Shown piece by piece: positions 34,190 to 64,000 of a stretch of 64,000 nucleotides of DNA (position 1 is the stretch's first letter; every line of letters starts with the position of its first letter). The position numbers and the translations under genes are program-made. A model generated the notes under the pieces. That model was not told where the DNA came from and did no database searches. It saw only the letters and a list, made by a program, of their open reading frames with translations. Where the stretch lies: positions 21,143,619 through 21,207,618 of the forward strand of contig OZ316892.1 in the NCBI GenBank assembly GCA_973895155.1, given 5' to 3'. The stretch comes from Marsupella aquatica. Its lineage: Eukaryota; Plantae; Marchantiophyta.

Positions 34190-35717
34190 TCCATCGCACT
34201 TTATTTGTTAAATAAGCAAGTTAACTACTTTCAAAGTTGTCTCAGAGGTTTTGAGTACACAATTTTATTATAGCATCTTGAGCCCTACATTATGAGAAAC
34301 GTCATTTACAACTCAAGTTTAAACATCAAGTAACTTGGGTCCAAAGTATTGGCCCCAGAATACAGAAGTAATGTAGGAACAATGAATCATAGGCTGGATG
34401 TAAATTAATGCTCAGGTCAGCCCGTGTAAGTGCTAACACTTCAGAAAGACCAACCAAAATGAACATCATCTGGTTTTATAGATTCGTGCATGCAAAAACC
34501 TTGTGGAAGGTGGAGGTCAAAACTTTTGTGAAATTGAATCCCCATAGGAGTTCCAACGCAACCACTTTTGACCAGTATGGCATGTCTAAATAGTATTTTC
34601 TCTTTTAAAACATTTGAAAAATATATAACTGATTGGTGTCAACATTCATGTACAGGTGCTGCATAGATATATTCATTTCCTCGTATCCACCTCACATCTT
34701 TGGAGGTGTAACCTTGTCCTGGAATCATAACAAGAAAGACAGATTGGATTGTGGTAATTCTTAGGTTGATAAATAATTGGCAAGCATCATTATCTGCATC
34801 ATTGAAACAACAGGATTGAGTAACAATCTCCAATCATCTAGTGAGAACATTAATACCTCAAATGACTTAAAGTCGGGCATGGGGTACTACTATCCAGGGA
34901 GATTTTGATTCCTGTTGATCAAGATTTAGCCAAAAGAACCCTGACCCAACCTTCCAAACTTTCAATCCGATCCGATTGTAAAACGATGCATACCGACAAA
35001 ATTCTGGCAAGATCATTCTGTCCTCCATCACTAATATCACCAAATATGAGCGGTTCAGAACATCGGCCACCATGAGCAACCGCCATTTGCATCACCACAT
35101 ATCCAACTCAACTGTTGTATGGCCTAGTTACAACATCTCCTGTCTTAGATAGAAAGTGCAGTATCCTATAACAATACAGAACATAGCTTCTTTCAGCATT
35201 GCCGTAATTGGCTTAGGCATTACGATTCTCCTGAGTAAATCCCTTGGTCCTTCTTTATAGACTTTAAGGTACTGAACGAGTTAGAGGCTTCTAAGACATC
35301 ACAAGGCAAAGTCCGATAAATTGATAAACTCACGTGCTCATTCAACTTGAGCCTGGCTGAATCCTTTGACAGCCAAAAAACTTACCGAGCCTCCCGGGAG
35401 CAGATGGCTGAAGGCATGCCAGTCAAAACGTAGGAAAAGGTGTGCCAGTAGTATGTGGCAAGCCTCATGCACTATAGTAACCTCTTATTCTCTTCTGGCA
35501 TCTGTAGGGGTGCGATCAATATGCAACTATTCTCAAACTTGGGGGTTGTAGCAACAATGCTTTAAACGTGTGATTGTGTTGACCCCAGAGTACAGAGCAG
35601 AAAGAAAACAAAGACTGGCAGAAAAAGCAGAAAAGACACAATTTCAAGTCTTTGATCTTTTTCTGTTGCTTGAGTGGGGCTTGAATAAGTTTTAGTACCT
35701 AATATGTGGGTGCTGTA

Positions 35718-36059
35718 TGAAGAATTTTTCTGATAATGCTTGATTAGCCCTCGTGATTGAGGGGAATTATACACAGAGAAAGAGACTGCCGTTAAGCGAC
35801 AACTAAGAATCACCGTAGGATTAGAACCATCAGAGGGATGGGAGACAGCCATCACAGCGGAGCAAGTGGTTGGAATCCTAGGTGGGATTTGTCCTAAGGA
35901 ACTAATTTTGTGATCGTTGATCTGCCTAGCGACCATAATAATGGATTGCTTAACAAACATGAATTAATTACAGCTAATCACCGGCTCACTAATTAAGTGA
36001 GGCAGTAGGCGTGATGAAGACAGAACCCGAGGACAATGTAGCTCCGTAGATTTTCAACA
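35718..36059 (-). repeat. Copia 3' LTR
   Basis: TG...CA ends; adjacent to the PPT; near-identical to 41280-41621. Confidence 0.95.
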
Positions 36060-36153
36060 CCCCCTCTTGATCTCATCACGCATAGAGGAGAAGAGAAGAC
36101 ACAACGCCAACAGGCAACAGGGAGAATAATCAGAACAGATAGAAAGCGAGAGA

Positions 36154-36618
36154 ATGGCGCAAGCAGATATCACACTGCGCGATACGTCAATCCAGTTCTT
36201 TCTAGCAATGTTGGACTTCCTGTCAGCTTTGGCACGGTACTTGATAGACTCCCTTCGATGTGGTCGAGAAGAGAGGTCGAGTTCAGGAGAATGTGAAGAA
36301 CGTGAGGTCCCGGCAACTCGTAGGCCAGAAGCTGTCCGTTCAGCGGTGGAGTTGTCACCGATTCCAGTTCCCTCGGATTCAGACGCAGCTCATGTCTCCT
36401 GGCCTCCGGTTATGGGAATTCCGGTTGCAGTAGTTCCAAAGGTATCGATAGAGCCTCCTCATAGATATTATGCAGTGGCAAGAGGTCGACGGCCAGGAGT
36501 ATACACGACTTGGGAGGAGACAGAGCCGCTGGTCAGTGGCTATAGAGGGAACAAGTTCAAATCGTTCAGAACTAGGCAGGAGGCGGAGATATATCTGCTA
36601 CGTAACGGTGCCCGCTAA
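36154..36618 (+). CDS. Antisense accessory ORF of the Copia element: hydrophobic N-terminal helix, Pro-rich linker, RNase H1 N-terminal hybrid-binding (Cauli_VI/viroplasmin-like) domain
   Basis: Intact ATG-to-TAA ORF of 154 aa. C-terminus YYAVARGRRPGVYTTWEETEPLVSGYRGNKFKSFRTRQEAEIYL fits the HBD consensus (FYAV..GR..GIY..W.EC...V.G...A..K.F.T..EA..Y). No RNase H catalytic domain follows. Confidence 0.85.
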   Translation: MAQADITLRDTSIQFFLAMLDFLSALARYLIDSLRCGREERSSSGECEEREVPATRRPEAVRSAVELSPIPVPSDSDAAHVSWPPVMGIPVAVVPKVSIEPPHRYYAVARGRRPGVYTTWEETEPLVSGYRGNKFKSFRTRQEAEIYLLRNGAR

Positions 36619-36693
36619 GCTTAGAATGAGAGATTGAGTAGCTGAGTATCATGATTTTGTCAGCAGAGCTTGGGCTAGGGGTCTCATGCCTAG

Positions 36694-39600
36694 CTAGTCA
36701 CGGTTTCTGCAGAATTTTGCTTTAGGAAGAGCTTTAGTCAGAATGTCGGCAACCTGTTCATCCGACCTTACATGTTGTACTGAGATTTCTCCCTCTAATA
36801 CTCTCTCCCTAATAAAGTGGTGGTGTATCTCGAGATGCTTAGTTCTGGCGTGAAATACCGGATTTTTGGCCAGTTTGATTGCACTCATATTATCGCAGTG
36901 CATGTGCAAGTCCTGTAGAGTAGGAACGATGGACCTTTCGAGATTGACTGATATTTCCGAGTTTGTGTGCTTGAGATTGCTCAGAGCAATTCTATGTTGT
37001 TGTAGTTCTTCGATGAGTCTTTTCAGATAGACTCCTTCCTGAGCACCGTCGGATAGTGCTCTGTACTCAGCTTCCGTTGTTGAGAGGGAAACTGTGGGCT
37101 GCCTATTGCTGCTCCAGGCCACGGGACCCATTGCAACTTTGTGAATGTATCCGCCTGTGGATCTACGTGTGTCTGGGCAAGAGTTGCCCCAATCTGCATC
37201 TGTGTACCCTTGAATTTCCAGTGAGCTCCCCCTCAGCTTGCAGTATGTCGTGACATCCATTTCCGGAGTATTAGTTTCGGCAGATAGTTCCAGACCTTCT
37301 GGCAGAGGTGTAGCAGTAGGTTGACAGTCCTCCATCCCGTATTCATGGACCAGTTGGTCTGCATAGAATTTTTGATGTAGTAATATGCCGGCATCAGACT
37401 GATGGAAGTCTACTCCGAGGTAGCGTCTGGCAGTGCCGAGATCTTTCATTTCATACTTGGATTGCAGCTGCTTTTTGAGTTTGGTGATGAGGTGTCCTCC
37501 GCTCCCAGTGATAAGCAAGTCATCTACAAATAGTAGAATAATTGTTGTTTTTCCATCTTGCTCCTTGAAGTATAGATTTGGATCGAGAGAGCTTCTGGTG
37601 CATCCGATTGACCTGAGAAATGCATCCATTTCCTTGTACCATTCCCTGGGACTTTGCTTTAGACCGTAGATGGACCTTCGTAATTGGCAGACCAGTTCTT
37701 CATGACTTGGAATGATGAAGCCTGGTGGTTGTTTCATGTAAATGAGTTCCCGTAGGGTGCTATTGAGGAACGTTGTTACCACGTCCATATGCAGCAGGGG
37801 CCATTTGAGTGCAGCGGCTAGAGCAACTATGAGACGAACTGTTGACCATCTAACCACCAGGGCAAATGTTTCATCATAATCAAGCCGTTCTCTTTGTTTG
37901 TTGCCATAGGCCACTACTCGAGCTTTAAGTTTTGAGTTTCCTGCATGGTCAATCTTCTCCCTTAGTACCCATCGAGCGGATAGGGCCTTCTCCCCAGGAG
38001 GAAGATTGACGAGATCCCATGTGCCATTTTTCTCGTGAGCTTGTCTGAAGCTCTAGTTGCATTGCCTCAATCCAGCGAGGATCCTGAAGAGCGTCACTGA
38101 GTTGAATGTCGTTACTGGAGTCAACAATAAAGGCAGTGCACAACGCTGATATTTCAGCTTCGAGTGAGACATGAAAGTCATCGTACTTGCGAGGGAAGGA
38201 GGTTAGTCGCTCAGAGGGAGGTCGTGTGCATTCAGGATTTCGGTGGCGAGCCCGCCGTATTGGTGGAGGAGGAGGGGTCGGGAATGGATCTAGGGAGGCA
38301 GCATTGGGAGATGTAGATGGATCAGTTGGTAGATAAATAGGATCGATGGGATTTGAAGGAACTGTGGAGTCGTCGGAGGGTTGTGAGTCAGTAGCATCAA
38401 ATGAAAATAGATCGAATAGACTCTCAGAGTGGCCCGTTGGTGACGGAAGGAAGTCACCAGGAGTGGACTCGTCAACAATGACGTCGTGAGAGATGAGGAT
38501 TTTTCGAGTGGCTGGGTCGAAGCAGCGGTAGGCCTTGCTTTGGTCATCGTAGCCGAGTAGAACGCACTTGATGGACCTGGCTTCCAGCTTGTTGCATAAG
38601 GCGGACGGAACATGGACATATGCTATGCTGCCTATGACCCAAAAGTGATTAAGCTTAGGCTTTGTAGACGTCAAACATTCAAATGGTGTAGAGAGATTGA
38701 GAGCACGAGTGCTGCAGCGGTTGTTGATGTGATTGGCAGTGCAAACTAATTCCTCCCAAAGATATGCGGGGCATTTGACCCAAACAATAATGATCTAGCG
38801 ATATCCAGGAGGGTGTGATTCTTCCTTTCAACAACCCCATTTTGATGAGGGGTTCTAGCAACCGTCAGTTGCCGAGATATGCCATGGGTTAGATAGAAGG
38901 AGCGAAAGAGCTCAGATGTGTATTCCCCGTCCCTATCGCTACGTACGCAGGCAATCTTGGAGTCAAATGCCACTTCAACATGGGATTTAAAGAATTTAAA
39001 TGACTCTAGTGCCTCGCTTTTGAGCTTGAGAAACTTGACCCACGTAAATCTGGAATAGTCGTCAGTGAAAGTAATAATGTACCTTGCGCCGGAGAGTGCT
39101 GGTATGGGAAATGGTCCACATAAGTCCGTGTGAATCAGCTCCAGAGGTTTGTGTGATTTGGAGGCGGTAGCCTTGGGAATTTTGTGACGAGTTGTTTCCC
39201 CTTCACGCATGTCTCGCAGACGTGGTCCTCAGATGTCAATGGAGGGACTCCAGTAACAAGGTTATGCCGAGTCATGTGAGCAATTCTCTGAGAGCTGGAG
39301 TGCCCCAGTCATTGATGCCATAGTTGAGACGTAGAGAGTGGTGATTCGGACAGATGACATTGGGCCAATAGACTTGGGTGCATGAGAAGTCTACGTTGAG
39401 AACATTTGGTCGGGTCGACTGTGCTGGGAAGTTGCTCGGAGGCCTCAATCCAAGGGTTGTCCCATATCATGCTCGAAGTTTTGGGGGAATAAACACCCTA
39501 AAAGTTAAGTCAATAAAGTTTTTTTAGGAATTTTTTTACCCCTAACTTAATAGAATATTCCAAGAATATTCCCATATTTGATTTAAAAAACCCCTATGAT

Positions 39601-41219
39601 TCTTATAATTCTCAAAATTGGATTAAAATAACCCTAATGTTCTTCAACAAAAATTTAAAAGTATTTCACTAAACCTAATAAAAAAACCCTATACTTATTC
39701 GCGCATGATGGATCAGAAGAAAAGAAGTGAGGACCCCGAGGGAAGTTGTAGTTTGTACAACTTACTCAAAGGATCCCGTGTTCCTTTGAGACGTACTTTG
39801 TGAGGTCGTTGTTGATCAAGAACATAGCAGTTCGATGTTGGCGAGCTTCCCGATAGATAAGAGATTCCTGGTAATACTAGGAACGTAGAGAACATCAGAC
39901 ACTATTTTATTGCTTGAAATCGGAATACATCCAGATCCGGACACAGGCATCTTGGATCTGCTGGCACTTAGGACGTTGGACTTAGACGAGCTGCCATGAA
40001 GTGTGGTAAAGTTGCTTTTATCACGGCTAATGTGGGTGGAAGCTCCGCTATCAAGAATCCAAGTGTGATTGTCAGGACATGTGTTGTCAAACTCACTGAG
40101 CATTGCTTCAACCGTGAGAGCTGACTGGTTGTCAGTGGGGACACTGTTCTTCTTAGAGTCGCTATCACCAATGTCGCTATGAGTAGCCAGGTAGGACTTG
40201 GGTCCAAGACCCTTGATGTCTTTGATGCTTTGAGTTAGCTCTCGCATCTGAGTGGGAGACATATACTTAATATCAGCATAAGCCTGTTTTTCAAAACAGT
40301 CAGGTTCCCAGTGTCCTTTCTTACCGCAGTAGTTGCAGGAGGGTCTGCTAGCAAAAACTCATGGTGTAGCATTCCTGGGCCCCCATCGGTTGAGCCTGCC
40401 ACGACCACGATCCCTTCCTTGATTGTAGTCTCGTCGCTGATCTCCATGATGGGATATCTGGGCTTCGCGCCGGTTGTCGCTAGATGCAGCAAGTAGTGAC
40501 TGTTCCACAAGGTCTCCAAAAGGCTTTCGGCTAAACTCCTCTGCCTGAAGGTACTCCTCAAAGTCTGCAAAGGTAGTGGTAGTATCTTTCGAGTACAAGA
40601 CACCATAAACAGATTTAAACGACGCCCAGCTAGCAGGAAGGTTACGCAGTACTATCTGAATAAGTTCCTTGTCAGGTATCTCTTCATCTATTGATGCAAG
40701 CTGCATCACGTGATGATCAATTTTCTTGAGGTATTCCTCAACTGATGCTCTTTCGTGCATCTTGAACTCAACAAGGGCAGTTTTAAGATCTAACTTCCGC
40801 TGAATGGCAGTGGATTCAAACTTCTGCTTAAGAGTGACCCAGAGTTTAGCTGGGTCCTTGCATAGTTTCCTAATGATAGGAAATATAGAGACATTGGAGG
40901 CTTTGGTAAGAATTATGATTACCCGCTCCTTGTCTTTCTGAACCGGGTCTGCAATGTTAGCGAGTCCTGTTGCAGCTGTGCTGCTGGTGGCTCCTGACGT
41001 GCTGGTGGTGGCTGTGGTCGACCCTGAGGGTGATGGATTCCCTCCCCCGGCTCCGGGTAGCCCATTGGTGACAGGCTGAGCCGAAGGGTCGGCGATGTAC
41101 CACAGCCCTCTCTCCCGCAGAATCTGCTCAACATGGAAGGCCCAGATGATGTAGTTCAGTGCTCCTACCAACTTTTCACTCTCGGAGAAGGAGATCTTCG
41201 TGGTGTTGGAGGAAGACAT
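36694..41219 (-). pseudogene. Copia gag-pol, frameshifted and interrupted
   Basis: gag ATG at 41219; zinc knuckle CNYCGKKGHWEPDC (~40300-40335); protease WILDSGASTHI; integrase HTDLCGP...DDYSR...RSD...QNGVVERKN; RT LLFVDDLLITG; RNase H YTDADW/TEAEY/CDN/QVADILTK. Several frameshifts, a MITE insertion, and an apparent deletion between TTYCKL and RGSSLEI. Confidence 0.93.
39435..39740. mobile_element. hAT-type MITE (family A) nested in Copia pol
   Basis: TIRs CTCGGAGGCCTCAAT / AGTGAGGACCCCGAG; exact 8-bp TSD GGAAGTTG (39427-39434, 39741-39748); 306 bp. Confidence 0.88.
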
Positions 41220-41279
41220 GGTGGGGCCTTGGAATGTCGTGGAGTGAAGAGTCTCAGAAATCTGGTAGCTCTGATACCA

Positions 41280-41621
41280 TGAAGAAATTTTCTGATAATG
41301 CTTGATTAGCCCTCGTGATTGAGGGGAATTATACACAGAGAAAGAGACTGCCGTTAAGCGGCAACTAAGAATCACCGTAGGATCAGAACCATCAGAGGGA
41401 TGGGAGACAGCCATCACAGCGGAGCAAGTGGTTGGAATCCTAGGTGGGATTTGTCCTAAGGAACTAATTCTGTGATCGTTGATCTGCCTAGCGACCATAA
41501 TAATGGATTGCTTAACAGACATGAATTAATTACAGCTAATCACCGGCTCACTAATTAAGTGAGGCAGTAGGCGTGATGAAGACAGAACCCGAGGACAATG
41601 TAGCTCCGTAGATTTTCAACA
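41280..41621 (-). repeat. Copia LTR adjacent to the PBS
   Basis: Directly abuts the PBS. Followed on + by a second PPT, ~247 bp of duplicated internal sequence and a terminal ~55-bp LTR fragment. Confidence 0.93.
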
Positions 41622-42099
41622 CCCCCTCTTGATCTCATCACGCATAGAGGAGAAGAGAAGACACAGCGCCAACAGGCAACAGGGAGAATAATCAGAACAG
41701 ATAGAAAGCGAAAGAATGGCGCAAGCAGATATCACACTACGCGATACGTCAATCCAGTTCTTTCAAGCGATGTTGGACTTCCTGTCAGCTTTGGCACGGT
41801 ACTTGATAGACTCCCTTCGATGTGGTCGAGAAGAGAGGTCGAGTTCAGGAGAATGTGAAGAACGTGAGGTAGGCGTGATGAAGACAGAACCCGAGGACAA
41901 TGTAGCTCCGTAGATTTTCAACACTGTAGTACGAAGTGAGGAAAGGGCATGATCTCATTACCCAACAAGACGTTGTAGACGTGTTGGATAAGGTGCAGCT
42001 TGTGCTAATGGACCAAGAACAGAAGTAAGCCGAGCAAAAAGAATTGTGTGAATGTCAACAACAGTCTGTGAAAGGAATGTTTTGTGGAGCTTGTTGAAC

Positions 42100-45245: not shown

Positions 45246-46515
45246 CGCCACATGAAGGAGCTTCAGCGACGTGCGGTGCTCCAACAAAGACTTGTAAAGG
45301 GAGTGTGTGCTTTTCTAGAATTGCGAAAGCTCTTCGTTAACTTTGATAGTAGTAAAAGCGTGAATTGCAAAATAATGAGAATGAACGGACTCACAAGAGA
45401 GCGCAGCGCAATCCGCATCCTCTTGAGTCTGCGGACCTGCAGAGCCTCAGGTGATATGGTGGGCCAGGGTCCGATTTTGAATCCGTCAGGTATTAGAACA
45501 AATCATGGATTCCACAATCTTCTACCTGCCAAGACTCGAAGCGCCGAAAAGACCTCTCCTACTCTTTCATGTCTTTCAAGTTATCCTGAAGTTTAAGAAA
45601 AAACTTAGTCAGGCAAGACACACTTCCTCACTATGTCCTGCCAATATTAGCAACGACCAGATCTGAAAAAAACTTCAATGATGGCTTCATTATAAAATTT
45701 TCCAGAGTAAACGTTTACCCACTTTCGTCTAGTCAATGAACCAAACCTGCCTTGCAGACAAAATTGACGTCATTTGCTCACAACGTGGATATTGGTTTAG
45801 TTCCCATCAGCAGATGCTAAATTCTGTGAAGTGATGAATAACGGTCTTAGAATTTGCTCACTTCCTGTAGAATGGAATGGGAAAAGTTTTCTTGTGGCCG
45901 GTGAAATACAATCTTGCCCTCTGCTCGTTTACTCATGGTGAGCAAAAGCTACTGACAGTACTGTAGATAGATACTCTTATGAGGTGTTTCATAACTTATC
46001 TGTAGGAATATGTTTCACTCTGAATAAAATTTTACTGGACCATACCAGAACAATTGCATTTTATGACTTTATGGGACTGGTTGTAGTTCTATGACGATCG
46101 TAAAGTGCTTGAAAGAATTCAACATTGTCCGACTGGCAACCACCACATCCAATAGATCATTCACATCAGCTCGAGCATTCAAATATGACTAGTCTGTGGG
46201 TTTCACAAGTCCTTGAGATCAATGACCGATCTGAAGGACCAGCGTCCGGGCCCGGGTCATCGCTATTCAAGCCTTGGGGGTCATTCTTATAGACACAATT
46301 GTCCTTCATATAACTTTGACAAATCCAAGATTTCGTTCAAGCTTCGCATAGGAGTTGGACCTTAGGCTGGTCCTTTGCAACTGATAATTCCACGCTGCTA
46401 GATAGTAAACTACGCCACATAAATCGCTGGATAACTGTGCTCTAGTTGGTATTCACATCCCAGTCTTGAAACTAAGGTATTTCGATCTCCAACAATTTCT
46501 AACCATAACGCTGAT

Positions 46516-49500
46516 CTACCTCAAGATTCTCCAAAGCCAGTTGTGCTGGTCTACCTCAAGATTCTCCAAAGCCAGTTGTGCTTCCTTTCGAAGCTCATTT
46601 TCACCCTCGGCCGCAGACTTGGTCAGAGCAGCCAACCAGACCTCCTCGGACCTCACTTTCAGCTTGATTGATGAGTTTTGTGTATGCGCCAAGTTGACCA
46701 AAGCCCACGCAACGTTTTTCTGCAAAAGAGCTTTGTCGCCTTCCGAGTAAGCCCTCATAAGGCCTGCAAGTACCCCTTCCTTGTTCACAATTGAAAGTTT
46801 TGTTGAGTCCCCTCCCATGGCTAGATTAGCAAAGGCCAATGCTGCATTCTTTTCCAATTCGGGATTCAGGTCCTTGGACAACCCTCCCACAAGGCCCTCA
46901 ACTGCCCCATCTTCACTCAAAATTCTGAGCTTGATTGTGTCCTGTCCACTGGCTAGATTTCTTAAAGCCCATGCTGCATTTTCCTGCAATTTTTGGTTGT
47001 TGTCGTTGGAGAGAGACTTGACCAGGCCTGCAAGTGCCCCCTCTCCACCTGAAATTTGGAGCTTCATGGACTCCCCTCCTACAGCTAGATTGGACAACGC
47101 CCTTGCTGCCTGTTCTTGAAAACTGGGATTCCGGGCCTTTGACAGAGATCCAACCAGGCCCTCCAAGGCCCCATGTTCATCCAAAATTCTGAGCTTGATT
47201 GCCTCCGATCCACTGGCTAGATTTGTTAAAGCGGATGCTGCATATTTCTGCAATTCTGGGTTTTGGTCAATGGAGAGAGACTTCACCAGGCCTGCAAGTG
47301 CCCCATCTTCACCTGAAATTTGTGGTTTCATGGACTCCCCTCCTGCAGCTAGGTTGGACAACGACCCCGATGCCTGTTCTTGTAAATTGGGATTCCAGGC
47401 CTTTGACAAAGCTCCAACCAGGCCCTCCAGGGCCCCATGTTCATCCAAAATTCTGAGCTTGATAACCTCTGATCCAGTGGCTAGAATATTTAAAGCCCAT
47501 GCTGCATATTTCTGCAATTCTGGGTTTTGGTCGTTAGAGAGAGACTTGACCAGGCCTGCAAGTGCCCCATCTCCACCCAAAATTTGGAGTTTCATAGACT
47601 CCCCTCCTACAGCTAGATTGCACAATGTCGCTGCAACCTGTTCTTGTAAATTGGGATTCTGGGACTTTGACAGAGCTTCAACCAGGCCCTCCAAAGCCCT
47701 ATTTTCATCCAAAATCCTGAGCTTGATTGTCTCTGATTTATTGACTAGATTTCTTAAGGCCGATGCTGCATTTTCCTGTAATTTTTGGTTGTTGTTGTTG
47801 GAGAGAGACTTGACCAGGCCTTCAAGTGCCACCTCTGTACCCAGAATTTGGAGTTTCATGGACTCCCCTCCTGCAACTAGGTTGCGCAAAGTTGCCACTG
47901 CGTGTTCTTGTAAATTGGGATTCTGGGCCTTTGACAGAGCTCCAACCAAGCCCTCCAAGGTCCCGTGTGCATCCAAAATCCTGAGCTTGATTGTCTCTGA
48001 TTTATTGACTAGATTTCTTAAGGCCGATGCTGCATTTTCCTGTAATTTTTGGTTGTTGTTGTTGGAGAGAGACTTGACCAGGCCTTCAAGTGCCACCTCT
48101 GTACCCAGAATTTGGAGTTTCATGGACTCCCCTCCTGCAACTAGGTTGCGCAAAGTTGCCACTGCGTGTTCTTGTAAATTGGGATTCTGGGCCTTTGATA
48201 GAGCTCCAACCAGGCCCTCCAAGGCCCCATATTCATCCAAAATCCTGAGCTTGATTGCCTCTGATCCATTGACTAGATTTCTTAAAGCCAATGCTGCATA
48301 TTTCTGCAAATCTGGGGTTTGGTCGTTGCAGAGAGAGTTGACCAGGCCTGCAAGTGCCCCCTCTGCACCCAAAACTTGGAGTTTCATGGACTCCCCTCCT
48401 ATAGCTAGATTGCACAAAGTTGCCGCTGCGTGTACTTGTAGATTGGGATTTTCAGCCTTTGACAGAGCTCCAACCAAGCCCTCCAAGGCCCCATGTTCAT
48501 CCAAAATCCTGAGCTTGATTGTCTCTGATTCATCGACTAGATTTCTTAAAGCCGATGCTGCATTTTTCTGTAATTTTTGGTTGTTGTTGTTGGAGAGAGA
48601 CTTGACCAGGCCTTCAAGTGCCCCCTCTGTACCCAAAATTTGGAGTTTCATGGACTCCCCTCCTGCAACTAGGTTGCGCAAAGTTGCCACTGCGTGTTCT
48701 TGTAAATTGGGATTCTGGGCCTTTGACAGAGCTCCAACGAGGCCCTCCAAGGCCCATGTTCATCCAAAATCCTGAGCTTGATTGCCTCTGATCCATTGAC
48801 TAGATTTCTTAAAGCCGATGCTGCATATTTCTGCAATTCTGGGTTTTGGTTGTTGGAAAGAGACTTGACCAGGCCCGCAAGTGCCCCTTCTGCACCCAAA
48901 ATTTGGAGTTTCATGGACTCCCCTCCTATAGCTAGGTTGCACAAAGTCGGTGCTGCGTGTTCTTGTAGATTGGGATTCTGGGCCATTGACAAAGCTCCAA
49001 CGAGGCCCTCCAAGGCCCCATGTTCATCCAAAATCCTGAGCTTGATTGCCTGTGATGCACTAACTACATTTCGTAATGCCGCTGCTACAGATTTTTGTAG
49101 TACAGGGTTCTCTTCCTTGGAGAGAGCCTTTAGAAGGCTTTCGAGCAATCCAGCCCCATTTGCAATTTGAATGTGGTGGCAAATTGAGTCACTTCCATCA
49201 TATGACAGGGACCACAAAATCGATGCAGACTTTGTTGCACGCGCATCTGAATCTTGAAGAGAGCATTGCAATGTCGGCAAAAGATCTGGCGTGCGTCGTA
49301 CATTAAATCTGATTGCCTTTCCCGACTTGATTTCACTGCAACTTTAGCTAGTGCTTCCCAAGTAGCGGTTTGAATATTTGAATTGAAATCTACATTCGAT
49401 TTCAAAATGTGCACTAGTGGTTGCAAAAAAGTCAGACGATCACTTTTTAGCAAAGGTATTTCTTCGATGTCAAGAATGTCGGCAAGCGCGACGAGCATTG

Positions 49501-51932
49501 CCAGCTGCGCTGATGGACAACTCGTCAGTTTCAACAGGATAGAGATGTTGTTGTCATCGAGCTCGTTGAAACAAATGTACCTTAGAAATACCTGTAATCA
49601 TGAGAAATAAAACTCATACAAGTTAAACATGGGGACGGAGATTCTATTGTTGGAATCTCGATGAGACAAATTTGTCTTGTTTGGAAATATGGCAAACTGT
49701 AATGTACAGAAGAACTTCAGGAAACTCCATTGAGGCCGCCTTGGATTAACGCAAGCTCAAATTCACTCATTTCTATTTCTAGTGTTTCTTTCAGGTTTTC
49801 TTCAGTAAACCCAGGAAGATAGCTCAGCTGGAGGTGCAGTGTTCAGGGGAGAAGTGCATGCTGTTCTTTGACAAATTTCTTACAACCAAATGAATGTAGT
49901 TGTGGTCTTAGAGTTTCTATGGCTTGACAGTAAGTTAACAAACTGCACAAATGAATCTTGTGTACTATGTGAAAGTCGGCCGCGGCAGAAAATAAAACAC
50001 TTAAAACGCAGCCGGAGGTACCTGTCTCAGACACCGGATATGTGATTCTCTCCATGTAGGGTCGTCTTCTTCTGTCTGGTCCAGCAACCAGATTAGGGGC
50101 TCAATCGCCTTTCGTCTCCGATCTTTAATAGTAGCAGTCCAGTCGTTCATGTGTGATGCTTTGCAAGCCCAAGTTGCAGCTTCTTTCACAACTTTATCAG
50201 TGTGATCTCTATCGAAGTACAATGCACACACAGCGATTGCCACTTTGTTCTTCCCGTTTTCCATTGATTCTGCTTCAGAGCCCCGCTCATGTTTGACATT
50301 AGAAACCACTTTAATTTCACCTTCCCCTTGCAAAAAACTGAAAAGGGACCTCATTTCCTGGTCACTAGCCAAATGCTGGTCAATGTAAAGCTTCAGTGTA
50401 GTCAACATGGACCATGACTTGGACTTTATTTGGTCCTTACTATCAAAATTCAGCTTGGCTGCTATACTATTGGTACTGTCTTTCAAGAGTTCCCTGGACC
50501 ACAACTCTGCAATTGACTTGGAAAACATGCCACCCGAAGTCTTTGCAGTAGCATGTACAATTCTTAACACCTCCTCTGGGACTGATTCTCCTTCACAAGC
50601 GTACATCAAGAACAAAATATCTTTAGCATTTCGGCTCTCCAAATAATCAATGCAGATTTTCATGGCAGCCCAAAGACTTCTTGGCGGAGTATCATCAGAA
50701 GTGCCCCCGAGAACAATTATTTTCTCTGGATCGCCAAGTATCTGACACAGTGCATTGTAGGCTTCATTCCATGCACGCACATCTGTCTTGTCTTGGTTGT
50801 TAGCAAAATTACTTGCCAAACAAGCGAGAGCTAATGGGTTGCCACCCGTAGCCTTTATCATCTGATCTCCAATGCGCTGCATGTCAAGAAAATAATACAC
50901 GACTAGTTAAATGCTGCAAAACCAATATTGATAAGGAAGGTTTAACATATAATAACTTGTTAAATGATTCAATTCTACACAAAAACGAAATAGGAATACC
51001 GAACTGTTGTAAATTGTAGAGTCCATGTAAACTCTGGAATATGGTAAGGAACAAACCAACAAAAGGGCTCAAACCGATTTTCAGAAACGGACCTGTAACT
51101 TTTGAGGAATTAAGTTGTCCTTCAGTCCAACAAGGGTTGCAAGAATGGTCTTCGCCTCATCATGTTTGGGATCACTCATGGGAATAGGAAAAGAGTAATT
51201 CGTACAGCTGTGACACAAATTGCGATATTGGGAAGTAACCAAGTACTTCACTTGGGTACCACCTTGAGAAGCTTTCAACATCTCATGTATGAAAAGAGGG
51301 TCGGACACATCGTCCAGAATAATTAAGATCTTGCTGCCGCTAAAAAAAAACTCATGGAGGGATTCTGCAATTCTAAATTTAAAGTCCCCCCTTTCTCTCT
51401 CTGGATTAGTGGTTAAGCTGGCGGGAGAAAGTCTCCTCAAGATGTCAGAAATTCTTGTCGGGATAGGCTTAAGGTCGGCATCCTGTTGCACAAGAGTTGC
51501 TAGTTCTATACCCTCCTTGATGATTTTGATGATGTCCTCTAAGGTGTTATTCACAGATCGAATTGGCTCATCCAGTTTAGCTGGGAAAGACGTCATATAT
51601 AATTTGACAGACAACCACCATCGCAAGAAACAACACGTATTGCTGTCAAATCTTTTCTTCAGTTCTCGTATGTCCGATTCGGCCTTTAATAGTGTGGATT
51701 TTGCGGTCTTCAGCTTCTTCACCACGTTGATATTCACACGTTCTCCACGATTCCTAAGTTGCTCCTCAACAGCCTCGATCCTTGAGTGAAGGGTTTCAAT
51801 GTCAGACGGAAAATTGGCCGAAGTCCCTCCCAGAGTCTTTAAATAAGACGCAATATCGGTGATCGATTTGCATATGTTAACGATCTGGTTCACCAACGCC
51901 AGAACCTCGTTGATAACTGCCACAGTGGCCAT
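46516..51932 (-). CDS. NLR-like protein copy 1: N-terminal helical bundle, NB-ARC (P-loop missing), ~19 armadillo repeats; two 1-nt frameshifts
   Basis: Phase-0 exons 51932-51093, 50876-50022 and 49591-46516. Walker B KILIILDDV, RNBS-B VKYLVTSQ, GLPL-like GGNPLAL, degenerate RNBS-D/MHD regions. Exon 3 is 3076 nt; restoring one base at ~49301 and one at ~48753 gives a single ~1590-aa ORF. Real pseudogene versus assembly error cannot be decided here. Confidence 0.8.
46620..49145 (-). repeat. Coding tandem repeat array, 132-bp (44-aa) ARM units alternating A/B (264-bp period)
   Basis: For example CTGAGCTTGATTGTCTCTGATTTATTGAC at 47717 and 47981 (offset 264). A = EGLVGALSK...GGESMKLQILG; B = xGLVKSLSN...IKLRILDEHGAL. 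Confidence 0.95.
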
Positions 51933-54117
51933 TATTCTCTATAATAAGACATGCAATAAAATTTAATCAGGATCTACATGTCCGAGACGGGTAACTGGAC
52001 TCGTCCATAGATTACCTACCCTTCGCAAACAATGGAGTGCCAATCAAATCTCTGATGTGTAGGCAAACAGAGAGCTGAACTGATAACTCGTGTGCAAAAA
52101 TGGAAATGGATACAGGCTATATACCTTGATATAACACTTAGTATTCCAACCTGAGAGAAAGTGTGGACTGCAACAACTTTTCGAGCTTACCTGTAGATCT
52201 TTGGATGATTTCAGGCGAAATCGGTATATATGATGTGCGCACACCGACTATGGTATCGAGCCTTTGGCCAGGAGATCAGGGTTAGCGCATCTTAATTTAC
52301 CCCCAAGTGGGTAGACTCAGAAGACACTCAAGTTTGGGTCGATGATTGACCTGTTAGACAAAACCCACCAAAGTATGGTAATATCCAGCTACATTGAGAC
52401 AGGGCCCGTAACTAGCATTTTGGCCCCAATGAATGGACAAGCATAAAGCTCTCGATGAACAAATGTTCAACAACCCAGAATTCGGTGACACAGTAGATGT
52501 AAATTTCCGTAACGATATTACGACCCGACGATAAATTTATCGGTGAAAATGATAAATTTATCGGTGGAAATGCCCTCCCTCAGATGATAGCCATGAGTAT
52601 TGTTGTGAAGCTGAACAACATCCGTGGATGGCAGTAATCAAAGAAAGAGCAGATCTACGATACACGAAAAGTCTAGGGCAAGGACAAGGTATACAGAGCC
52701 CATCTACAAACCCACCAAACAGAAATTCTACATGAATGATTGTGTGATGAAGGAAACAATTAATCAAAGAAGCTAGGGATGGAATGCGAACGGCAAGAGC
52801 GAAGAGTACATGGAAGAGAGCTTGCTTGCCCAGAAGGCCGTAATGATGGCCGATCAACAATTAAGCCGATTTTCAGTCGGACCCACCCCCAAAAGGAAGC
52901 GAACGGGAAATCAATTATTCTAGGCAGCCAGTGGCCAACTCCTCGTAACAGAAGACAATGCTCATAGGCACTTGAGGAAGGGAAGGGGAACTAAGGGTAC
53001 AGCATGGTATCAAGTGGTACACCTCGTGGGACTACTGCAGCTGCAGGCACGTACGTGTAGGTTCCCGGGTTCCCGGGTTCCCGGCTGGAACCAGACTGCT
53101 GTCATTGAGACAATGCCCACTCCATTGGGCCCGCCCAGAATCCTCCTCCATAGGCATCCTTGAGCGTCTTGTGTACTTCCGTCTTGCGCATTCAATCTGC
53201 AAAGGTCAGAGAATTGAGCCGGGGAGTCTGGAGTGTATGTGACCCTTCAAATTGTTCTTCAGTGTAGTTCATCTAGTCACAACTTAGCAGAATCGATCTG
53301 ACCTGACCCTCTCCCCGAACATGAAGCTTCGGCCTCCAGTGACACGTACGGTGCGTTGAGACAGACGCATTGTAAAGCACGATCGAGACGTAGTACTTGG
53401 CAGGTAGATCGATCGCATCGGTTCCTCGGCAAAATGGAGTAACCGCGCAGGACTGTCCCGTGGCATCCACTACCCCAGACGACCAGCTAGAAGTATTCTT
53501 CTGCCATCTCTTCGTTGTACACTCAAGCGAAGTGGATTGCTTGTGGAAGCAGCTTTCTCGTAGATTCCAATCTATCGGCCGAGGTACCGCGAAGTAAAAA
53601 GTTTTTAGACGCGGAACCTTTGGGAACACATCGGCACCTGGCATGTACCTTTTGAGGTCGAACAGAAAGTATGTGTTGTAGACGACAGAAACGAGGGCTG
53701 ATACCGTAACATCATAAGAGTCGCTGGAACAAATCACAACTGAAACGCTTTGTCGGTGTCAAAAGTCCAGAGACGCAAGACTTCATAATTCTAGCAATTA
53801 TGCGGTGACTAAGAGAGATCAGGGTCCTGATGAGTAGCTTTGCTTGATCTCCCTTCTCCAGTGATCGGATTCGGAATTACTCTGGGATGCTTAATTACGC
53901 AAGTAGTAATGTTCAGTCTGTGGATGTTTCCAAGGGACTGGTAAATGATTCCTCACGTTAGCCACGTCCACGGTCGAGAATTTTCTTACTACTTCCACGC
54001 GGATCAACATGACCATCTACAGTAAGGTTTCATTATTTTATTTCTGTGGAATCGTTCACAATTAAATATTTTTAAAAATCAGTCATCAATGTAAAAGTCT
54101 GGTTTGAAAAGGATATG

Positions 54118-57531: not shown

Positions 57532-60500
57532 TGTCTTTCAAGTTATCCTGAAATTTAAGAAAAATTTCCCTCCAGTCAATTTGTCCCCTAGTTGATGAAC
57601 CAAGTCTGCCTTGCAGGCGAAATTGACATCATGGTTCACAAAGTGGATTTTGGTCGAGTTCACATGAGAATGATAATAACTCCTGTTCCAGTGATGAACT
57701 GCAGTTTTAGAAATTGCAATCATCTGATTTCAGGGAAAAAATTCTTCTGTGGTGAACGAGACAATCTTGTCCTCTGCTCACTTCCTCATTTTGACGAACA
57801 ATTGAGGAAGTGTTGATATTGTACTGTATCATTTTATGGCACAAGTTGTAGTTCTGTGAGGATTGCAACCCGCCTGAACGAATTCAACAGCAGTGTCTGA
57901 CTGGCAACCACCACATGCAATAGATCATATACATCAGCTAGAGCATGCAAATGTAGTCTGTGGGTTTGTGAAGTCCTTCAGATCAATCACCGATGGTGAA
58001 TTATAAGAACTAGAGTTTGATCAAAACGCCCTTGATTCGTTGAATGGCAAACCCAAAATTGATCCACGGAAGTTAGATTACCACCGGGATTACCACCAAA
58101 GAAATGCCACATAGATCAAGCAAAGTACTAACAGAAAACATACTGCCCATGTGAGGCCGGAAGAACTGTGCACCAGATGAGCTTTCTGAGATTATCCCGA
58201 GTGTTCTTTGAAATTCTAACAAGGCTCTCAGCAACGGACAACTGAGAGTGAATCAATTTTCCCAAGCCTACGGAATGCCAAATCGGGGAACTTACGGACA
58301 GGACAAGCCGGAAAGTGACCTTGCCAGTGAAAGGAGAAAACCAATAGTCTCGCGAAAATGCAAGGAGCACTTGAGCAAAAACAGGTTAGCAACGGGTTAC
58401 GAGATTTCTTATCTCTAACTTGGTGATTGTCCAGCCAACCTAGCGAACAAAGCAAGGTCTTCGTGAGCAAGGAACTTCTTCACAAATATAGGTAGCTGAG
58501 CGAGTGCTGTACAAGCAGTGGGTGAGGCCATAGTTTAGACACGTGTGGCACCAACATGGAGTAATCTGAGTCTGATGTTTGTGATGTAACCATCAAACTT
58601 TAGCCGTAAACGGGAACAATTGTCTAGACAACCAGGAGCTCCACCATAACCTTGTTCAAATGGAATTTACCTACTTGCTACCAAATGCTTCAATCAATCT
58701 TGGCGTTCTCAAGCTTGGGAGACTAATGTGACTACCTGTTGATTTGAGACAAGTGAACAGTAAGCCCGGGTCATAGATATTCAAGATTTTGGGTGACTCT
58801 TATAGACACAATTGTCCTTCATATGATTTTGACAAATCCAAGATTGCGTTCAACCTTGCATAGGAGTTGGACGTTAGACCGGTCCTTTCCACCTGATAAA
58901 TTCCACGCTGCTGAGATAGTAAAATACGCCACAAAAATCGATACTTTTGCTCTAGTTGGTCTTCATCAGCCCAGTCTTAAAAGATATATTTCAAACTCCA
59001 ACAATCTCTAGCCATAAGGCTAAGATTCTCCAAAGCTAGTTGTACATTGTGAACGTACTCGTTTTCACCCTCGGCCGCAGACTTGGTCAGAGCAGCCAAC
59101 AACTCCTCGGCCCTCGCTTGAATCTTGATTGATGGGTCTTGTGTGTGTGCCAATTTGACCAAAGCCGACGCAGCGTTCTTTTGCAAAAGAGGTTGGTTGC
59201 CTTCCGAGTAAGCCCACAGAAAGCCTGCAAGTGCCCTTCCTTTTTCACAATTGAAAGTTTTGTTGAGTCTTCTCCCATGGCTAGATTAGCTAAAGCCAAT
59301 GTTGCACTGTTCTCCAATTCGGGATTCCGGTCCTTAGAAAACCCTCCCACAAGGCCCTCAAGTGCCCAATCTTGATCCAAGATTCTGGGCTGCATTGCCT
59401 CCGGTCCCCTGGCTAAATATTTTAAAGCCCGGCTGTAGAGTCTGTAGTTTTGGGTTCTCATCGTTGGAGAGAGACTTGACCAAGGTTGCAGGTCAAGTCT
59501 CCTCTCCTGCAGCTAGATTCACAGACAACCTTGCTGCTGCTCCTTGCAATTTGGGATTCTGGTCCTTAGATAGAGCCCCCACCAGGCCCTCCAGCGCCCC
59601 ATCTTGACCCAAGATTCTGAGCTGGACTTGCTCCCGTCCACTGTCTACATTTTCTAAAGCATATGCTGCATTTTTCTGTAGTTTTGGGTTCTCATCGTCG
59701 GAGAGAGACTTGACCAGGCCTGCAAGTGCCCTTTCTGCACCAGAAGCATAGAGTTTCATGGAGTCCTCTCCTGCAGCTAGCTTCCTAAACACCCTTGCTG
59801 CTGCTCCTTGCAATTTAGAATTCTGGTCCTTTGATAGAGTTCCTACCAGGCCCTCCAACGCCCCATCTTGACCCAAGATTATGAACTGGACTTTCTCCGG
59901 TCCACTGGCTAGCTTTCCTAAAGCACATGCTGCACTTTGCTGTAGTTTTGGGTTCTCATCGTTGGAGAGGCACTTGACCAGGCCTGCAAGTGCCCCCTCT
60001 GCACCCGAAGATAGAGTTTCATGGACGGCCATCTTGCAGCTAGACACCGCAGCACCTCTGCTGCCTGTTCTTGCATTTTGGGATTCCAATCCTTTGACAG
60101 AGCCCCCACCAGGCCCTCCACCGCCCTATCTCTTCACCCAAAATTAGAAATTGGATGGACTCCAAGTTCGCAAGTAGATTCCGCAAAGCCCCTGCTGCCG
60201 CTTCTTGCAATCCGGGATTCCGGTCCTTTGATAGAGCCCCCACGAGGCCCTCCAGCACCCGACATTTACCCAACATTCTGAGCTTGACTGTCTCCTGTCC
60301 AATTAATATATTTCTTAATGCCCATCCTGCATTTACCTGAGGATTAGGGTTCGTGTCCATGGAGAGGGACTTGACAAGGAGTTCGAGCAACCCAGCCCTA
60401 TTTTCATTCAGAATGTAAAGGTGAATTGATTCTGCACCCGGGTGTGACAGCTTTCACATAATCGACGCAGCATGTTTGCACGCCCATCTGAATCTTGGAG

Positions 60501-63262
60501 AGAGCTTTCCAATATGGGCAAATGATCTGGAGTGCTTCTCACCACAGAATCTGGTTGCCTTTCCACATTAGATTTCAAGGCAACTTTAGATAGCGCTTCC
60601 CAGGCCGCGGTTTGAATATTTTGATTAAAATCTGCAGTCGATTTCAAAATGTGCACTATTGGTCGCAAAACATTCAGACGATCACTTTTAAGCAAAGGTA
60701 TTTCTTCGATATGAAAAATGTCTGTAAGAGCGACGAGCATTGCCAACTGTGCTGATGGACAACTCGTCAACTTCAATAGGATAGCGATATTGCTGTATGT
60801 CATCAAGCTCGTTGAAACAAATGAACATCAGAAATACCTGTAATCATGACACGAAATAAAACTCATACAAGTCATGCGGACGAAGATTCTATCGTTGGAA
60901 TCTCGATGATACAAGTTTCTCTCCAGACCTTTGATAATAACGCAAACTGTAATGTACTGACAAGGTTCAGCAACTCCATTATCGCCGTTTTGGATTTCTA
61001 TTCCCAGTTTTTCTTCAGTTTATTTTTCAGTAAATCCTGGAAGATAGCTCAGCTGGAGGTGAAGTGTTCAGGAGACAAAAGCATGCTGTTCTTTGACGAA
61101 TTTCCTTAAACCAATAATGTGGTTTTAAAGCCCGTTTTAAAGTTTTGATGGGTTAACGGTAAGTTAACAACACGCACAAATAAATCTTCTGTATCGTGTG
61201 ACCAACGACAGTGGCGGAAACGGAAACACTTAGGGCAGCCGGAGGTACCTGTCTCAGACACTGGATATATGATTCTCTCCATGTAGGGTCGACTTCGTCT
61301 GTCTTGTCCAGCAACCAGATTATGGGCTCGATGGCCTTTCGTCTCCGATCTTTGATAGTAGCATTCCAGTCCTTCATATTCGATGCTTTGCAAGCCCTAG
61401 TTGCAGCTTCTTTAACAGCTTTATGAGTATGATCTCCATGCATCGAAGTGCACACAGAGCGATAATTGCCACTTTGTTCTTCTCGTTTTCCGTTGGTTCT
61501 GCTTCAGAGCCCCGTTCATGTTTGACACTAGACTCCGCTTTAATTTCACCCTCCCCTTGCAGAAAAACGCAAAAGAGACCTTATCTCCTGACCACTAGCC
61601 AAATGCTGGTCATGTAGAGCTTCAGTGTAGTCAACATGGACCATGACTTGGACTTCATTAGGTCCTCACTATCAAAATTCAGCTTGAGCGCTATAGTACT
61701 ATTGCTATCTTTCAAGAGTTCTTTGGACCATAATTCGGCAATCGACTTGGAGAACATGCCACCCGAAGTCTATTGCAGTGGCATGCATAATTCTTAACAC
61801 CTCCTCTGGGACTGATTCTCCTTCACAGGCGTACATCAAGAACAAAATATCTTTGGCATCTCGGCTTCCAAACAATCTATAAATTTTCATGGCAGCCCAA
61901 AGACTTCTTGGCAGAGTATCATCAGAAGTGCCGATAAGGACAATCATATTCTCTCGATCGCCAAGTATCTGACACAGTGCATTGTAGGCTTCATTCCATG
62001 CACGCACATCTGTCTTGTCTTGGTTGTTAGCAAAATAACTCGCCAAATATGCACGAGCTAACGGGTTGCCACCTGTAGCCTTTATCATCTGATCTCCAAT
62101 TGGCTGCATGCCAAAGAAAATAATGCAGTACTCGTTAAACGCTGCAAAACCAATATTCATAAAGAAGCTTTAACATATACTAAATTGTTACATGATTCAA
62201 TTCTGCACAAAAATGAAATAGATTTTCCAGCACTGTTGTGAATTGTACAGTCAATGTAAAACCAGAAAACTATAAGGAACAAACCAAAATAAGATTCGAA
62301 AGTGGTATTCAGAAACGGACCTGTAACTTGTCAGGAATCAAATTGTCCTTCAGTCCAACTAGTCGCAAGAATGGTCTTCGCCTCATCATGTTTGGGATCG
62401 GTCATAGGAATAGGGAAAGAATGTTTCCTACAGATGTAACACAAAGTGGGATCTTGAGAAGTAACCAAGTACTTGACTCGTTTACGACCTTCAGAAGCTT
62501 TCAACATCTCATCTATAAAAATACTGTGGGACACATCGTCCAGAATGATTAACATCTTGTTGCCACTCAAAAAAAACTCACGGAGGGATTCTGCAATCCT
62601 AAATTAAAAGGCACTGTGTTCTTTCTCTGGATGACTGGCTAAGCTGGCGGGAGAAAGTCTCCTCAAGATTTCATAGTGCTTGTTTGAAGGATCAAATTTG
62701 GAGCTACGTGCACAATTGACAAGGAGCACGTATTGAAACACTTCCTTTCTGTTTTGATAGATCTTATGCACATATCTGGCAAGAGTAGATTTCCCTGAGC
62801 CCAGCTGCCCACCAAACAGAGATTCTACATGATTGTGAGATGAAAGAAAGAATTATTCAAAAAATGGATGGAAAAAATATTGAAGTCCAAGGAATCCGAA
62901 CGGAAACAAGAGTGAAGGTTTGAAGAGTGTTTGCCTACTAGCTCAGAAGGCCCTAAGGATTGGCCGAACAAACAGATTTTGAGTCCGACCCACCCCACAA
63001 AGGACGCGAACGGGAAATCAATCAATCTAGGCAGCCAGCTAGTGACCACCTCGCATAACAGAAGACAATTCATCCTCCCATTCCTCGTTGTATCGGACTG
63101 ACAATGGATAGTTTCTTTAAGCGAGTGGCTCTGAATGCATTTTCGATATCGTAGAGTTGTACATGAAACAAAGCACTTGAGGAAGGAGCGGGGAAGGGCA
63201 AGCGTGGCATACCGTGGTGGGTACACCTCGTGAGAATACAGCAGTTGCAGGTACGTACGTGT
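57532..63262. repeat. Second unit of a diverged tandem segmental duplication (paralogous to ~45570-53060)
   Basis: Shared anchors: TGTCTTTCAAGTTATCCTGAA (45570/57532), CTGGCAACCACCACAT (~46132/57901), TATAGACACAATTGTCCTTCATA (~46288/58801), matching introns and exons, and the upstream block ~52711-53060 / ~62808-63262. Confidence 0.9.
58977..62813 (-). pseudogene. NLR-like copy 2: NB-ARC with P-loop, ~10 ARM repeats; 5'-truncated pseudogene
   Basis: Walker A GQLGSGKST at 62810-62784; in-frame TAA at 62606-62604; KMLIILDDV, VKYLVTSQ, GGNPLA; same intron positions as copy 1; many frameshifts in the ARM region. Confidence 0.88.
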
Positions 63263-64000
63263 AATTTCGGCAGGAACAAGACTGCAGTTATTTCGACATG
63301 CCATGAAATGTGATCAGCTGAACCTCTGCGATTCAGGAGCTACATTTTTGAGACGGGTAATTAGACTCGTCCAATTATATACTAACCCTTTGCAAACAGT
63401 ACACTGACAATCAAATCTCGGATGTAGAGGCGGACAGAGAGCTCAACTGATCACTGCGAGTGTATCGATACCTTGATATAGCAGGTTCCCGTCCTGACGG
63501 AATATGTGGGCAAGAAGACAAAACTAAACACATGTTTTGGGCAAATATGTTTGGGAGATAGCATAAAATTCCCCAAATTAATGTTGGTAATCCAGATGGA
63601 GATGGGGCAAATATAAATGTGAGAGCATATAATTGTTTTTTTTGCAAGATTTTTTATGGTCATCATCTCTATTTACGTTCAAGGAATGGGTAAATCAGGC
63701 TAATAAGATAAATTTAACAATCACATTTCATTTTAGATTGCATTTATTGGTAAATGTAATTTTCCCTGAAAAATGCACTTAGGGAGGGACTATTGGAAAC
63801 CAAACAAACCCATATAACCTCATGCACTACAAGAGGCATGCACGAAAGCACTGACATGCCCTGTTAAAAATTGCACAATGTTGTCCAAGTGGAAGTGCTT
63901 AATCCAGGGGTTCACCTTATGAAGTTGTTGTATACCTTGTGCAAACTACTCTCATAAACCCAAGCAAATACCACCCCCTCTCACAGGTATAGGAAGCTCA

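Follow-up and report, generated by a model that had tools for sequence, protein, structure and literature searches.

The question raised by this locus is whether a liverwort gene built like an immune receptor is a working one, and what family stands behind it. The locus lies on the minus strand at 46516..51932 of a 64,000-nucleotide window from Marsupella aquatica (assembly GCA_973895155.1, contig OZ316892.1, positions 21,143,619 to 21,207,618). An earlier note made from the sequence alone had described it as a receptor with an amphipathic helical head, a nucleotide-binding (NB) domain of the NB-ARC type and armadillo (ARM) repeats in place of the leucine-rich repeats (LRRs) of plant NB-LRR receptors (NLRs). 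Our answer is that the locus is probably a disabled member of a liverwort-type family that exists in many copies and has the order head-NB-ARC-ARM, often with a tail of tetratricopeptide repeats (TPRs); the members of this family are likely to be NLR-type sensors of non-self. The gene and its paralog are laid out in the window as follows:

51093..51932, minus strand: exon 1, 280 codons, helical head and NB domain without the P-loop (open frame, Pfam NB-ARC, alignment to the relative P0004)
51474..51932, minus strand: predicted four-helix bundle of the head, residues ~3-153, coiled-coil (CC)-like, with an amphipathic first helix (AlphaFold2 model)
51444..51449, minus strand: junction of an in-frame deletion of ~81 residues including Walker A and RNBS-A (alignment to P0004, contigs)
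50877..51092, minus strand: intron 1, 216 nt, GT-AG, phase 0 (splice-site check)
50022..50876, minus strand: exon 2 (285 codons), coding for the GNPL motif, the winged helix, in which the MHD motif is degenerate, and helical domain 2
49592..50021, minus strand: intron 2, 430 nt, GT-AG, phase 0 (splice-site check and P0004 alignment)
46516..49591, minus strand: exon 3, which codes for the helical linker and the ARM array and carries two frameshifts (frame analysis, Pfam)
49303..49305, minus strand: frameshift 1, one base short, near 49304 (frame analysis, contigs)
48751..48753, minus strand: frameshift 2, near 48752, where a G run lacks one base and ARM repeat 4 begins (frame analysis)
46642..49148, minus strand: 19 ARM repeats, each exactly 44 aa, alternating A and B types that form an 88-aa unit (repeat analysis)
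58975..62860 (approximate), minus strand: decayed tandem paralog with the P-loop present (homology, frames)

The three-exon structure proposed in the earlier note holds, as both the exon 1-2 and the exon 2-3 junctions give a gapless alignment with P0004, an intact relative. The N-terminal sequence quoted there is present as given, and the motifs named there are all located in the focal translation: Walker B (ILIILDDV), RNBS-B (YLVTSQ), GGNPLAL and the degenerate MHD (WSMLTT). The Pfam scan that it had proposed recovers NB-ARC in exon 1 just above the cut-off (E=1.4e-5, 24.9 bits versus 23.5) and Arm strongly in exon 3 (E=9.6e-66), where its estimate of about 19 repeats matches our count. Neither an LRR nor a TIR domain is matched in the Pfam scans of the focal exons or the relatives; ARM repeats are found instead of LRRs. 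The exon 2 product is 61.5% identical to P0004 and 42% to another relative, P0001 (E=3e-59), and the first helix of the focal head has a hydrophobic moment of 0.38. At the 3' end a 35-bp tandem duplication (46511-46580, minus strand) alters the last residues of the gene.

Two kinds of lesion disable this gene. The alignment shows an in-frame loss from the focal copy of the residues that correspond to ~169-249 of P0004, and of Walker A and RNBS-A along with them, whereas Walker A is present in the paralog and in 8/8 full-length relatives scanned. The deletion leaves exons 1-2 open over 565 codons; however, the one-base frameshifts in exon 3 end the encoded frame after 718 aa, ahead of the first ARM repeat, so that no ARM repeat is encoded. 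We checked these lesions against separately assembled contigs, short and unphased, from four of five listed runs (X1-X4). A contig from X1 (51408-51815) bridges the deletion junction with 0 differences, and one from X4 crosses it, though on one side it extends for just 30 letters. At frameshift 1, contigs from X1 and X2 equal the window with 0 differences, and another X4 contig shares the frameshift. One contig from X3 (5 differences over 340 nt, ~98% identical) instead lacks the deletion, its head running on into the pre-P-loop motif, and another X3 contig has one more base at the site of frameshift 1; moreover, 49137-49271 is found in two versions each in X3 and X4 (0 and 5 differences). Broken and unbroken sister sequences therefore coexist, with a difference of about 2-4% between the focal copy and the sister sequence. 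Frameshift 2 has no cover in X1 or X2; X4 is without the extra base and X3 holds both forms, the repeats making contigs ambiguous here. Readings of the frameshifts as tiny introns and of the P-loop as lying on a hidden exon were ruled out, since the sister contigs are colinear and simply hold the missing bases. The simplest reading is that the focal locus is a pseudogene and not a working receptor, as its product would have no P-loop for ATP and no encoded sensor. The earlier note, in which the disabled state of the copy is not stated, only hinted at the frameshifts with the word 'frame-corrected'.

The locus belongs to a family present in many copies. Loose contig ends at 51447 and many differing contigs at 85% likeness point to this, and so does the tandem paralog. 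The latter, placed by the earlier note 12 kb away, lies at an offset of 11.2 kb and shares 81% DNA identity with the focal gene across 2.6 kb, but it is itself decayed: it has a P-loop along with many stops and indels. The P-loop piece matches Pfam NACHT (E=1.8e-4) and NB-ARC (E=0.037), and sequence comparison detects no match to the focal helical head in the paralog. A match to the focal upstream region 51967-52088 is retained at 63333-63455, and the stretch 62808-63069 holds a piece resembling 52711-52959, the head-coding stretch being lacking. With the upstream match and the P-loop in the paralog and the head in the focal gene, the two broken copies have lost complementary parts. The proposed rapid turnover of copies is thus borne out by the tandem paralog, the numerous paralogous contigs and the pseudogenes.

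What do intact members look like? Two word-based homologue searches yielded 1 relative among 3725 candidates and 5 among 7993, every one of them from the leafy liverwort Calypogeia fissa, and a phmmer search over 1.84 billion proteins gave 21 matches. Twenty relatives were looked up. Nine of these 20 come from C. fissa, which is the source of every species-named one, in agreement with the suggested non-seed-plant setting; no angiosperm-named protein is among the 20, the query having been exon 1 without the P-loop. The intact homologs that the earlier note had asked for were found, in C. fissa only: eight full-length, P-loop-bearing relatives (P0001-P0005, P0014, P0020 and P0024). NB-ARC and Arm are present in 8/8, a helical head in 6/8, a hydrolase-like head in 2/8 and a C-terminal TPR region, by Pfam, in 5/8; NB-ARC scores of the relatives range over 42-83 bits. 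The order head-NB-ARC-ARM of the focal gene, seen in its Pfam matches and head model, is thus shared by its relatives. P0004 is the closest (NB-ARC 62% identical) and clusters with the focal copy at support 98/96. A canonical MHD is absent throughout, from the focal copy as from the 7 relatives in which the motif region was found (for example WSLHSL in P0024). Most of the relatives predicted from contigs stop at or just past the position of intron 1.

The first tree leaves out P0022, P0027-P0029, P0010, P0015, P0016, P0017 and P0023 (the latter five without an NB domain or too short), and the second comprises the focal copy and seven full-length relatives, P0014 being left out. P0022 is an LRR repeat protein and was dropped as spurious; a single locus from a metagenome scan was not matched by P0004 and is taken as chance; and a further homologue search among proteins of 2716-5000 aa gave three ARM-only proteins, which were not used. 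P0016 and P0023 are head-only members of the family that lack an NB domain; they are either models cut short or executors that act alone. The most divergent relative, P0021, is a JGI/IMG record found on 11 contigs that ends near the same intron position and hints at a range wider than one liverwort genus. NCBIfam and PADLOC yield only weak generic ATPase, TPR and repeat matches. In the Atlas, P0004 falls nearest to a Streptophyta NB-ARC cluster with 52 members (1051 aa, Arm in 21%, score 0.96; the score for P0024 is 0.87); this cluster may be the family's own or an RLS1-like one and serves as a lead only.

The NB-ARC fold of the family is represented by a full-length model of P0024 (pLDDT 73.3), which stands in for the focal one. 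The arrangement of nucleotide-binding domain, helical domain 1 and winged-helix domain, expected of a STAND NTPase, is recovered in this relative: its NB-ARC superposes on Apaf-1 (Z 25.3, root-mean-square deviation (rmsd) 3.9, 362 aligned) and on the NRC1 NB-ARC (Z 25.2, rmsd 3.7, 326 aligned), and its repeats superpose on a designed ARM protein (Z 27.6, rmsd 2.0, 325 aligned). ZAR1, NRC2/3, CED-4 and Apaf-1 are among its Foldseek matches.

The head is predicted by AlphaFold2 (19 sequences) to consist of four long helices (pLDDT 68.4, pTM 0.52). A fold search with this model gives generic four-helix bundles only, the best being a designed bundle (Z 11.8, rmsd 3.1, 126 aligned), and the Foldseek match to NRC3 is weak (E=1.0). 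In the context of the NB domain, the picture is more specific: against solved structures, the profile of head and NB ranks ZAR1 first (E=2.2e-14), followed by NRC3 and NRC2, and aligns helix by helix and in colinear order through the CC of ZAR1 and the NRCs. Tomato NRC2 scores 38.1 bits in this profile with its CC and 28.6 without it. The family resembles ZAR1 and NRC2/3/4 (PDB 6j5t, 9ri9, 8rfh) in these colinear best matches through head and NB, in the four helices and in the amphipathic first helix, and is unlike them in lacking LRRs and a clear EDVID motif, in its degenerate MHD and in the absence of significance for the head alone. Of the executor head of RPW8, MLKL or HeLo type suggested previously, the four-helix bundle stands, and a specific match was not seen: none of the three appears in the Pfam scans, the profile search or among the fold-search matches listed, an absence which excludes nothing, and the best in-context alignment is to the ZAR1/NRC coiled coils. 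CC-like is hence the best label for the modelled helical head, though an unproven one.

The ARM array is characterized by near-identity between its repeats. We measured this as the best ungapped self-match per 100 aa (not with T-REKS), with a threshold of 85%. The focal array reaches 95 (at shift 88), P0002 94 and P0004 91, so that three of nine proteins attain at least 85%; P0003 follows with 83, P0014 with 73, P0005 with 59, P0001 with 42, P0024 with 29 and P0020 with 24. As DNA, the focal units are 81-97% identical. Repeat number differs between paralogs, and so does unit size: P0002 and P0003 have units of 45 aa, the focal copy one of 88 aa and P0004 one of 135 aa, so that homogenisation took place separately in each lineage.

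The differences that do exist between repeats are concentrated on one face. The peptide groove is presumably formed by the eight positions 16, 19, 20, 23, 26, 27, 30 and 31, a set that comes from work on designed ARM proteins. In the alignment to such proteins, positions 20, 23, 26, 27 and 30 correspond, in that order, to the residues E, W, S, N and S within QEALWALSNIASGG. In four of four proteins the difference rate is higher, about twofold, at groove than at other exposed positions (0.48/0.23, 0.39/0.16, 0.46/0.22 and 0.51/0.15; p 0.003, 0.044, 0.012 and <0.001; pooled 3.5e-4), and with the proteins pooled, positions 20, 23, 30, 19 and 26 vary most. By minimal-change counts on the focal DNA, the ratio of nonsynonymous to synonymous change (dN/dS) is 1.72 for groove codons and 0.52 for the others: substitutions that alter the amino acid are over-represented in the groove (p=0.002), with no such excess among synonymous ones (p=0.75), and the repeat outside the groove is under purifying selection (p=0.007). 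Peptide binding by ARM proteins through helix 3 and its Trp is described in the accessible part of PMC10684580; the accessible part of PMC11228518 states no groove position numbers.

A further trait of the family is the exchange of heads. P0001 and P0002 carry, in place of the helical head, a domain which we take to be alpha/beta-hydrolase-like, a label that rests on the nucleophile motif (GHSxGG in P0001, GHCxGG in P0002). P0002 and the helical-headed P0003 share an 81.2% identical NB-ARC and are sisters at 100/100, and a single clade for the two hydrolase-head members is rejected by the approximately unbiased test (p-AU 1.3e-9). The alignment of P0002 with P0003 begins in the last helix of P0003's head, which suggests that the hydrolase took the place of most of the helical head.

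Repeat identity, groove variation and head exchange match three traits described for fungal NLRs, namely high internal conservation, selection on the ligand face and head swaps (PMC4986451, this and the other articles being cited for their accessible portions). In HET-D/HET-E of Podospora and the sesB/NB-ARC/TPR proteins, as in the liverwort family, near-identical repeats have a variable ligand face (PMC4986451; PMC13449251); likewise, repeat number varies, helical and hydrolase heads are exchanged on NB-oligomerisation domains that are >80% identical, and intact and broken alleles occur side by side. The two differ in that the fungal repeats are of the WD40, ankyrin (ANK) or TPR type, in that the liverwort NB-ARC profile ranks plant CC-type NLRs first among solved structures, and in that its groove dN/dS is not significantly >1 (p=0.30). 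A 2026 survey that extends high conservation to plants covers, in its accessible text, ANK, TPR, WD40 and LRR only (PMC13449251). Among plant receptors, the TPR tail in 5/8 full-length relatives recalls TNP (TIR-NB-ARC-TPR), given as the only TPR-bearing NLR-like class in plants in the portion seen of PMC9806590, and the hydrolase-like head in 2/8 recalls the hydrolase-NLRs of Marchantia (10.1101/2022.10.19.512840, the accessible main text of which has no occurrence of ARM or armadillo). Unlike these, the liverwort family has neither TIR nor LRR and places an ARM array between NB-ARC and TPR.

Following the known STAND cycle, the intact members probably work as follows. The ARM superhelix would bind a target peptide in its helix-3 groove, with one pocket per repeat; binding would release the NB-ARC switch, with its intact GxxxxGKS P-loop and Walker B, for the change from ADP to ATP and for oligomerisation; and oligomerisation would cluster the heads, whether a CC-like bundle, predicted to damage membranes as in ZAR1 and the NRCs, or the alpha/beta-hydrolase-like domain. 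New specificities would arise as near-identical repeats are duplicated and homogenised while change is focused on groove residues, and the output would be altered by head swapping. Tentatively, and with less confidence than the sensor reading as such, we suggest that leafy liverworts may possess fungal-style, diversity-generating ARM receptors, in which modules of 44-45 aa would each read a part of a foreign peptide via 4-5 variable groove residues, modules would be copied and reshuffled, and pore-type and hydrolase heads would be exchanged on one NB-ARC.

Several observations weigh against the sensor reading. The head-only profile search found no NLR, the head alone matches Rx_N in 2/16 members with a best E of 0.11 (not significant), and the head model is of moderate confidence (pLDDT 68.4). 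In Marchantia, two other CC-like domains did not kill cells, according to the accessible text of PMC12512272. P0002 has a Cys at the nucleophile position, no hydrolase domain is matched by Pfam in the heads of P0001 and P0002, and the hydrolase-NB fusions depend on automated gene models from one genome. Six of nine proteins are under the 85% mark for repeat identity, with P0001, P0020 and P0024 at only 24-42. The groove set, taken from work on designed ARM proteins, was fixed after the repeats had been inspected, and the repeats are not independent of each other; since the groove dN/dS of 1.7 is not significantly >1, relaxed constraint may account for the bias. Finally, the contigs that speak for an intact sister copy are short and separate, and no phase can be assigned to them.

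The alternative that survives best, though we regard it as unlikely, is a liverwort expansion of the known CC-NB-ARM lineage, in which the repeat identity would merely reflect recent neutral slippage in a tandem array. RLS1 is a CC-NB-ARC protein with three ARM motifs, the activated form of which causes cell death (PMC10030324). CC-NB-ARM has been named a conserved class (PMC12512272), NB-ARM proteins of Selaginella moellendorffii have been described (PMC8559963; PMC7145615), and ARM sensors are reported from non-flowering plants (PMC10586772). The suggestion that the architecture might be undescribed has therefore to be given up. The liverwort family has the domain order of RLS1 (helical head, NB-ARC and, in place of LRRs, C-terminal ARM; PMC10030324) and shares its GxxxxGKS P-loop (PMC13621481); the Atlas cluster of P0004 has 1051 aa as against 1040 aa for RLS1, but may be the family's own, and the lack of a significant groove dN/dS suits neutrality. 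On the other hand, RLS1 has three ARM motifs and its homologues are mostly singletons (27/29 in Oryza; PMC13621481), in contrast to a family with as many as 19 regular and near-identical repeats, in which copies are many, pseudogenes occur, heads are swapped and a TPR tail is frequent, as far as the two can be compared by description. The 20 relatives include no angiosperm-named protein, though for a query without the P-loop, and neutral slippage does not predict a groove bias in 4/4 paralogs with units of 45, 88 and 135 aa. The Selaginella proteins likewise combine NB-ARC with ARM-type repeats and are expanded in a non-seed plant; again by description, internal repeat conservation, groove variation and head swapping are not reported for them in the accessible texts. 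Descent from the RLS1 lineage and the sensor reading are mutually compatible. Our literature searches, for which subscription journals were largely outside coverage, found no paper on a liverwort NB-ARM family, and the combination of fungal-NLR-like repeat and head dynamics in such a family appears to be undescribed.

It is less probable still that the family is a non-immune STAND scaffold, acting in development, stress or within-species self-recognition and not as a pathogen sensor. RLS1 was first linked to senescence, the fungal proteins that behave most similarly serve allorecognition, and the repeats of the more divergent P0020 and P0024 are not identical; a housekeeping scaffold, however, would not be expected to show copy turnover, pseudogenes, exchanged heads or change biased to the groove. 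As to the focal copy itself, there is a slim chance that it is alive as a 718-aa protein without P-loop or sensor, a dominant regulator or decoy of intact members. NLR regulators with a truncation or a degenerate P-loop are known. The deletion preserves the reading frame, exons 1-2 stay open over 565 codons, and the lesions, being found also in a contig from X4 (organism B), are not private to one sample. Yet a copy only ~2-4% from its sister is expected to have few stops even without selection, a third of deletions keep the frame by chance, another frameshift follows further downstream and the neighbouring paralog has decayed likewise. Assembly error in an intact gene is scarcely credible, for although frameshift 2 lies in a homopolymer uncovered by X1 or X2, X1 and X2 agree over frameshift 1 and X1 over the deletion, each with 0 differences, the X1 contigs are a separate assembly (even if X1 may be the source sample), and X4, with another organism label and from another study, also has frameshift 1.

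Elsewhere in the window, a Ty1/copia-type retrotransposon (label from motifs) lies at 35717-41870 (minus strand), with frames for gag, integrase and reverse transcriptase/RNase H that contain breaks and long terminal repeats of about 592 bp that are 98.3% identical; the focal paralog is not located there. An intact single-frame F-box gene of 606 aa (F-box E=2.3e-9, weak Kelch signal) occupies 29434-31251 (plus strand), and open frames at 697-2225 (plus strand) with a hydrophobic stretch resemble exons of another gene.

As a pseudogene, the locus is of value only as a pointer to its family. LRR-less immune receptors of plants are barely characterised, RLS1 being the one NB-ARM protein with a described phenotype in the literature consulted (PMC10030324). 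Regular ARM modules with binding positions known from designed ARM proteins make a recognition code directly testable, and the liverwort family, if it is a sensor, would offer a programmable ARM sensor already joined to an NLR switch. Should the reading be true, the family would be a second TPR-bearing NLR-like class in plants and nature's equivalent of the designed modular ARM binders, coupled to a cell-death switch; repeat shuffling and head swapping as known from fungal NLRs would then have arisen in a land plant on another type of repeat.

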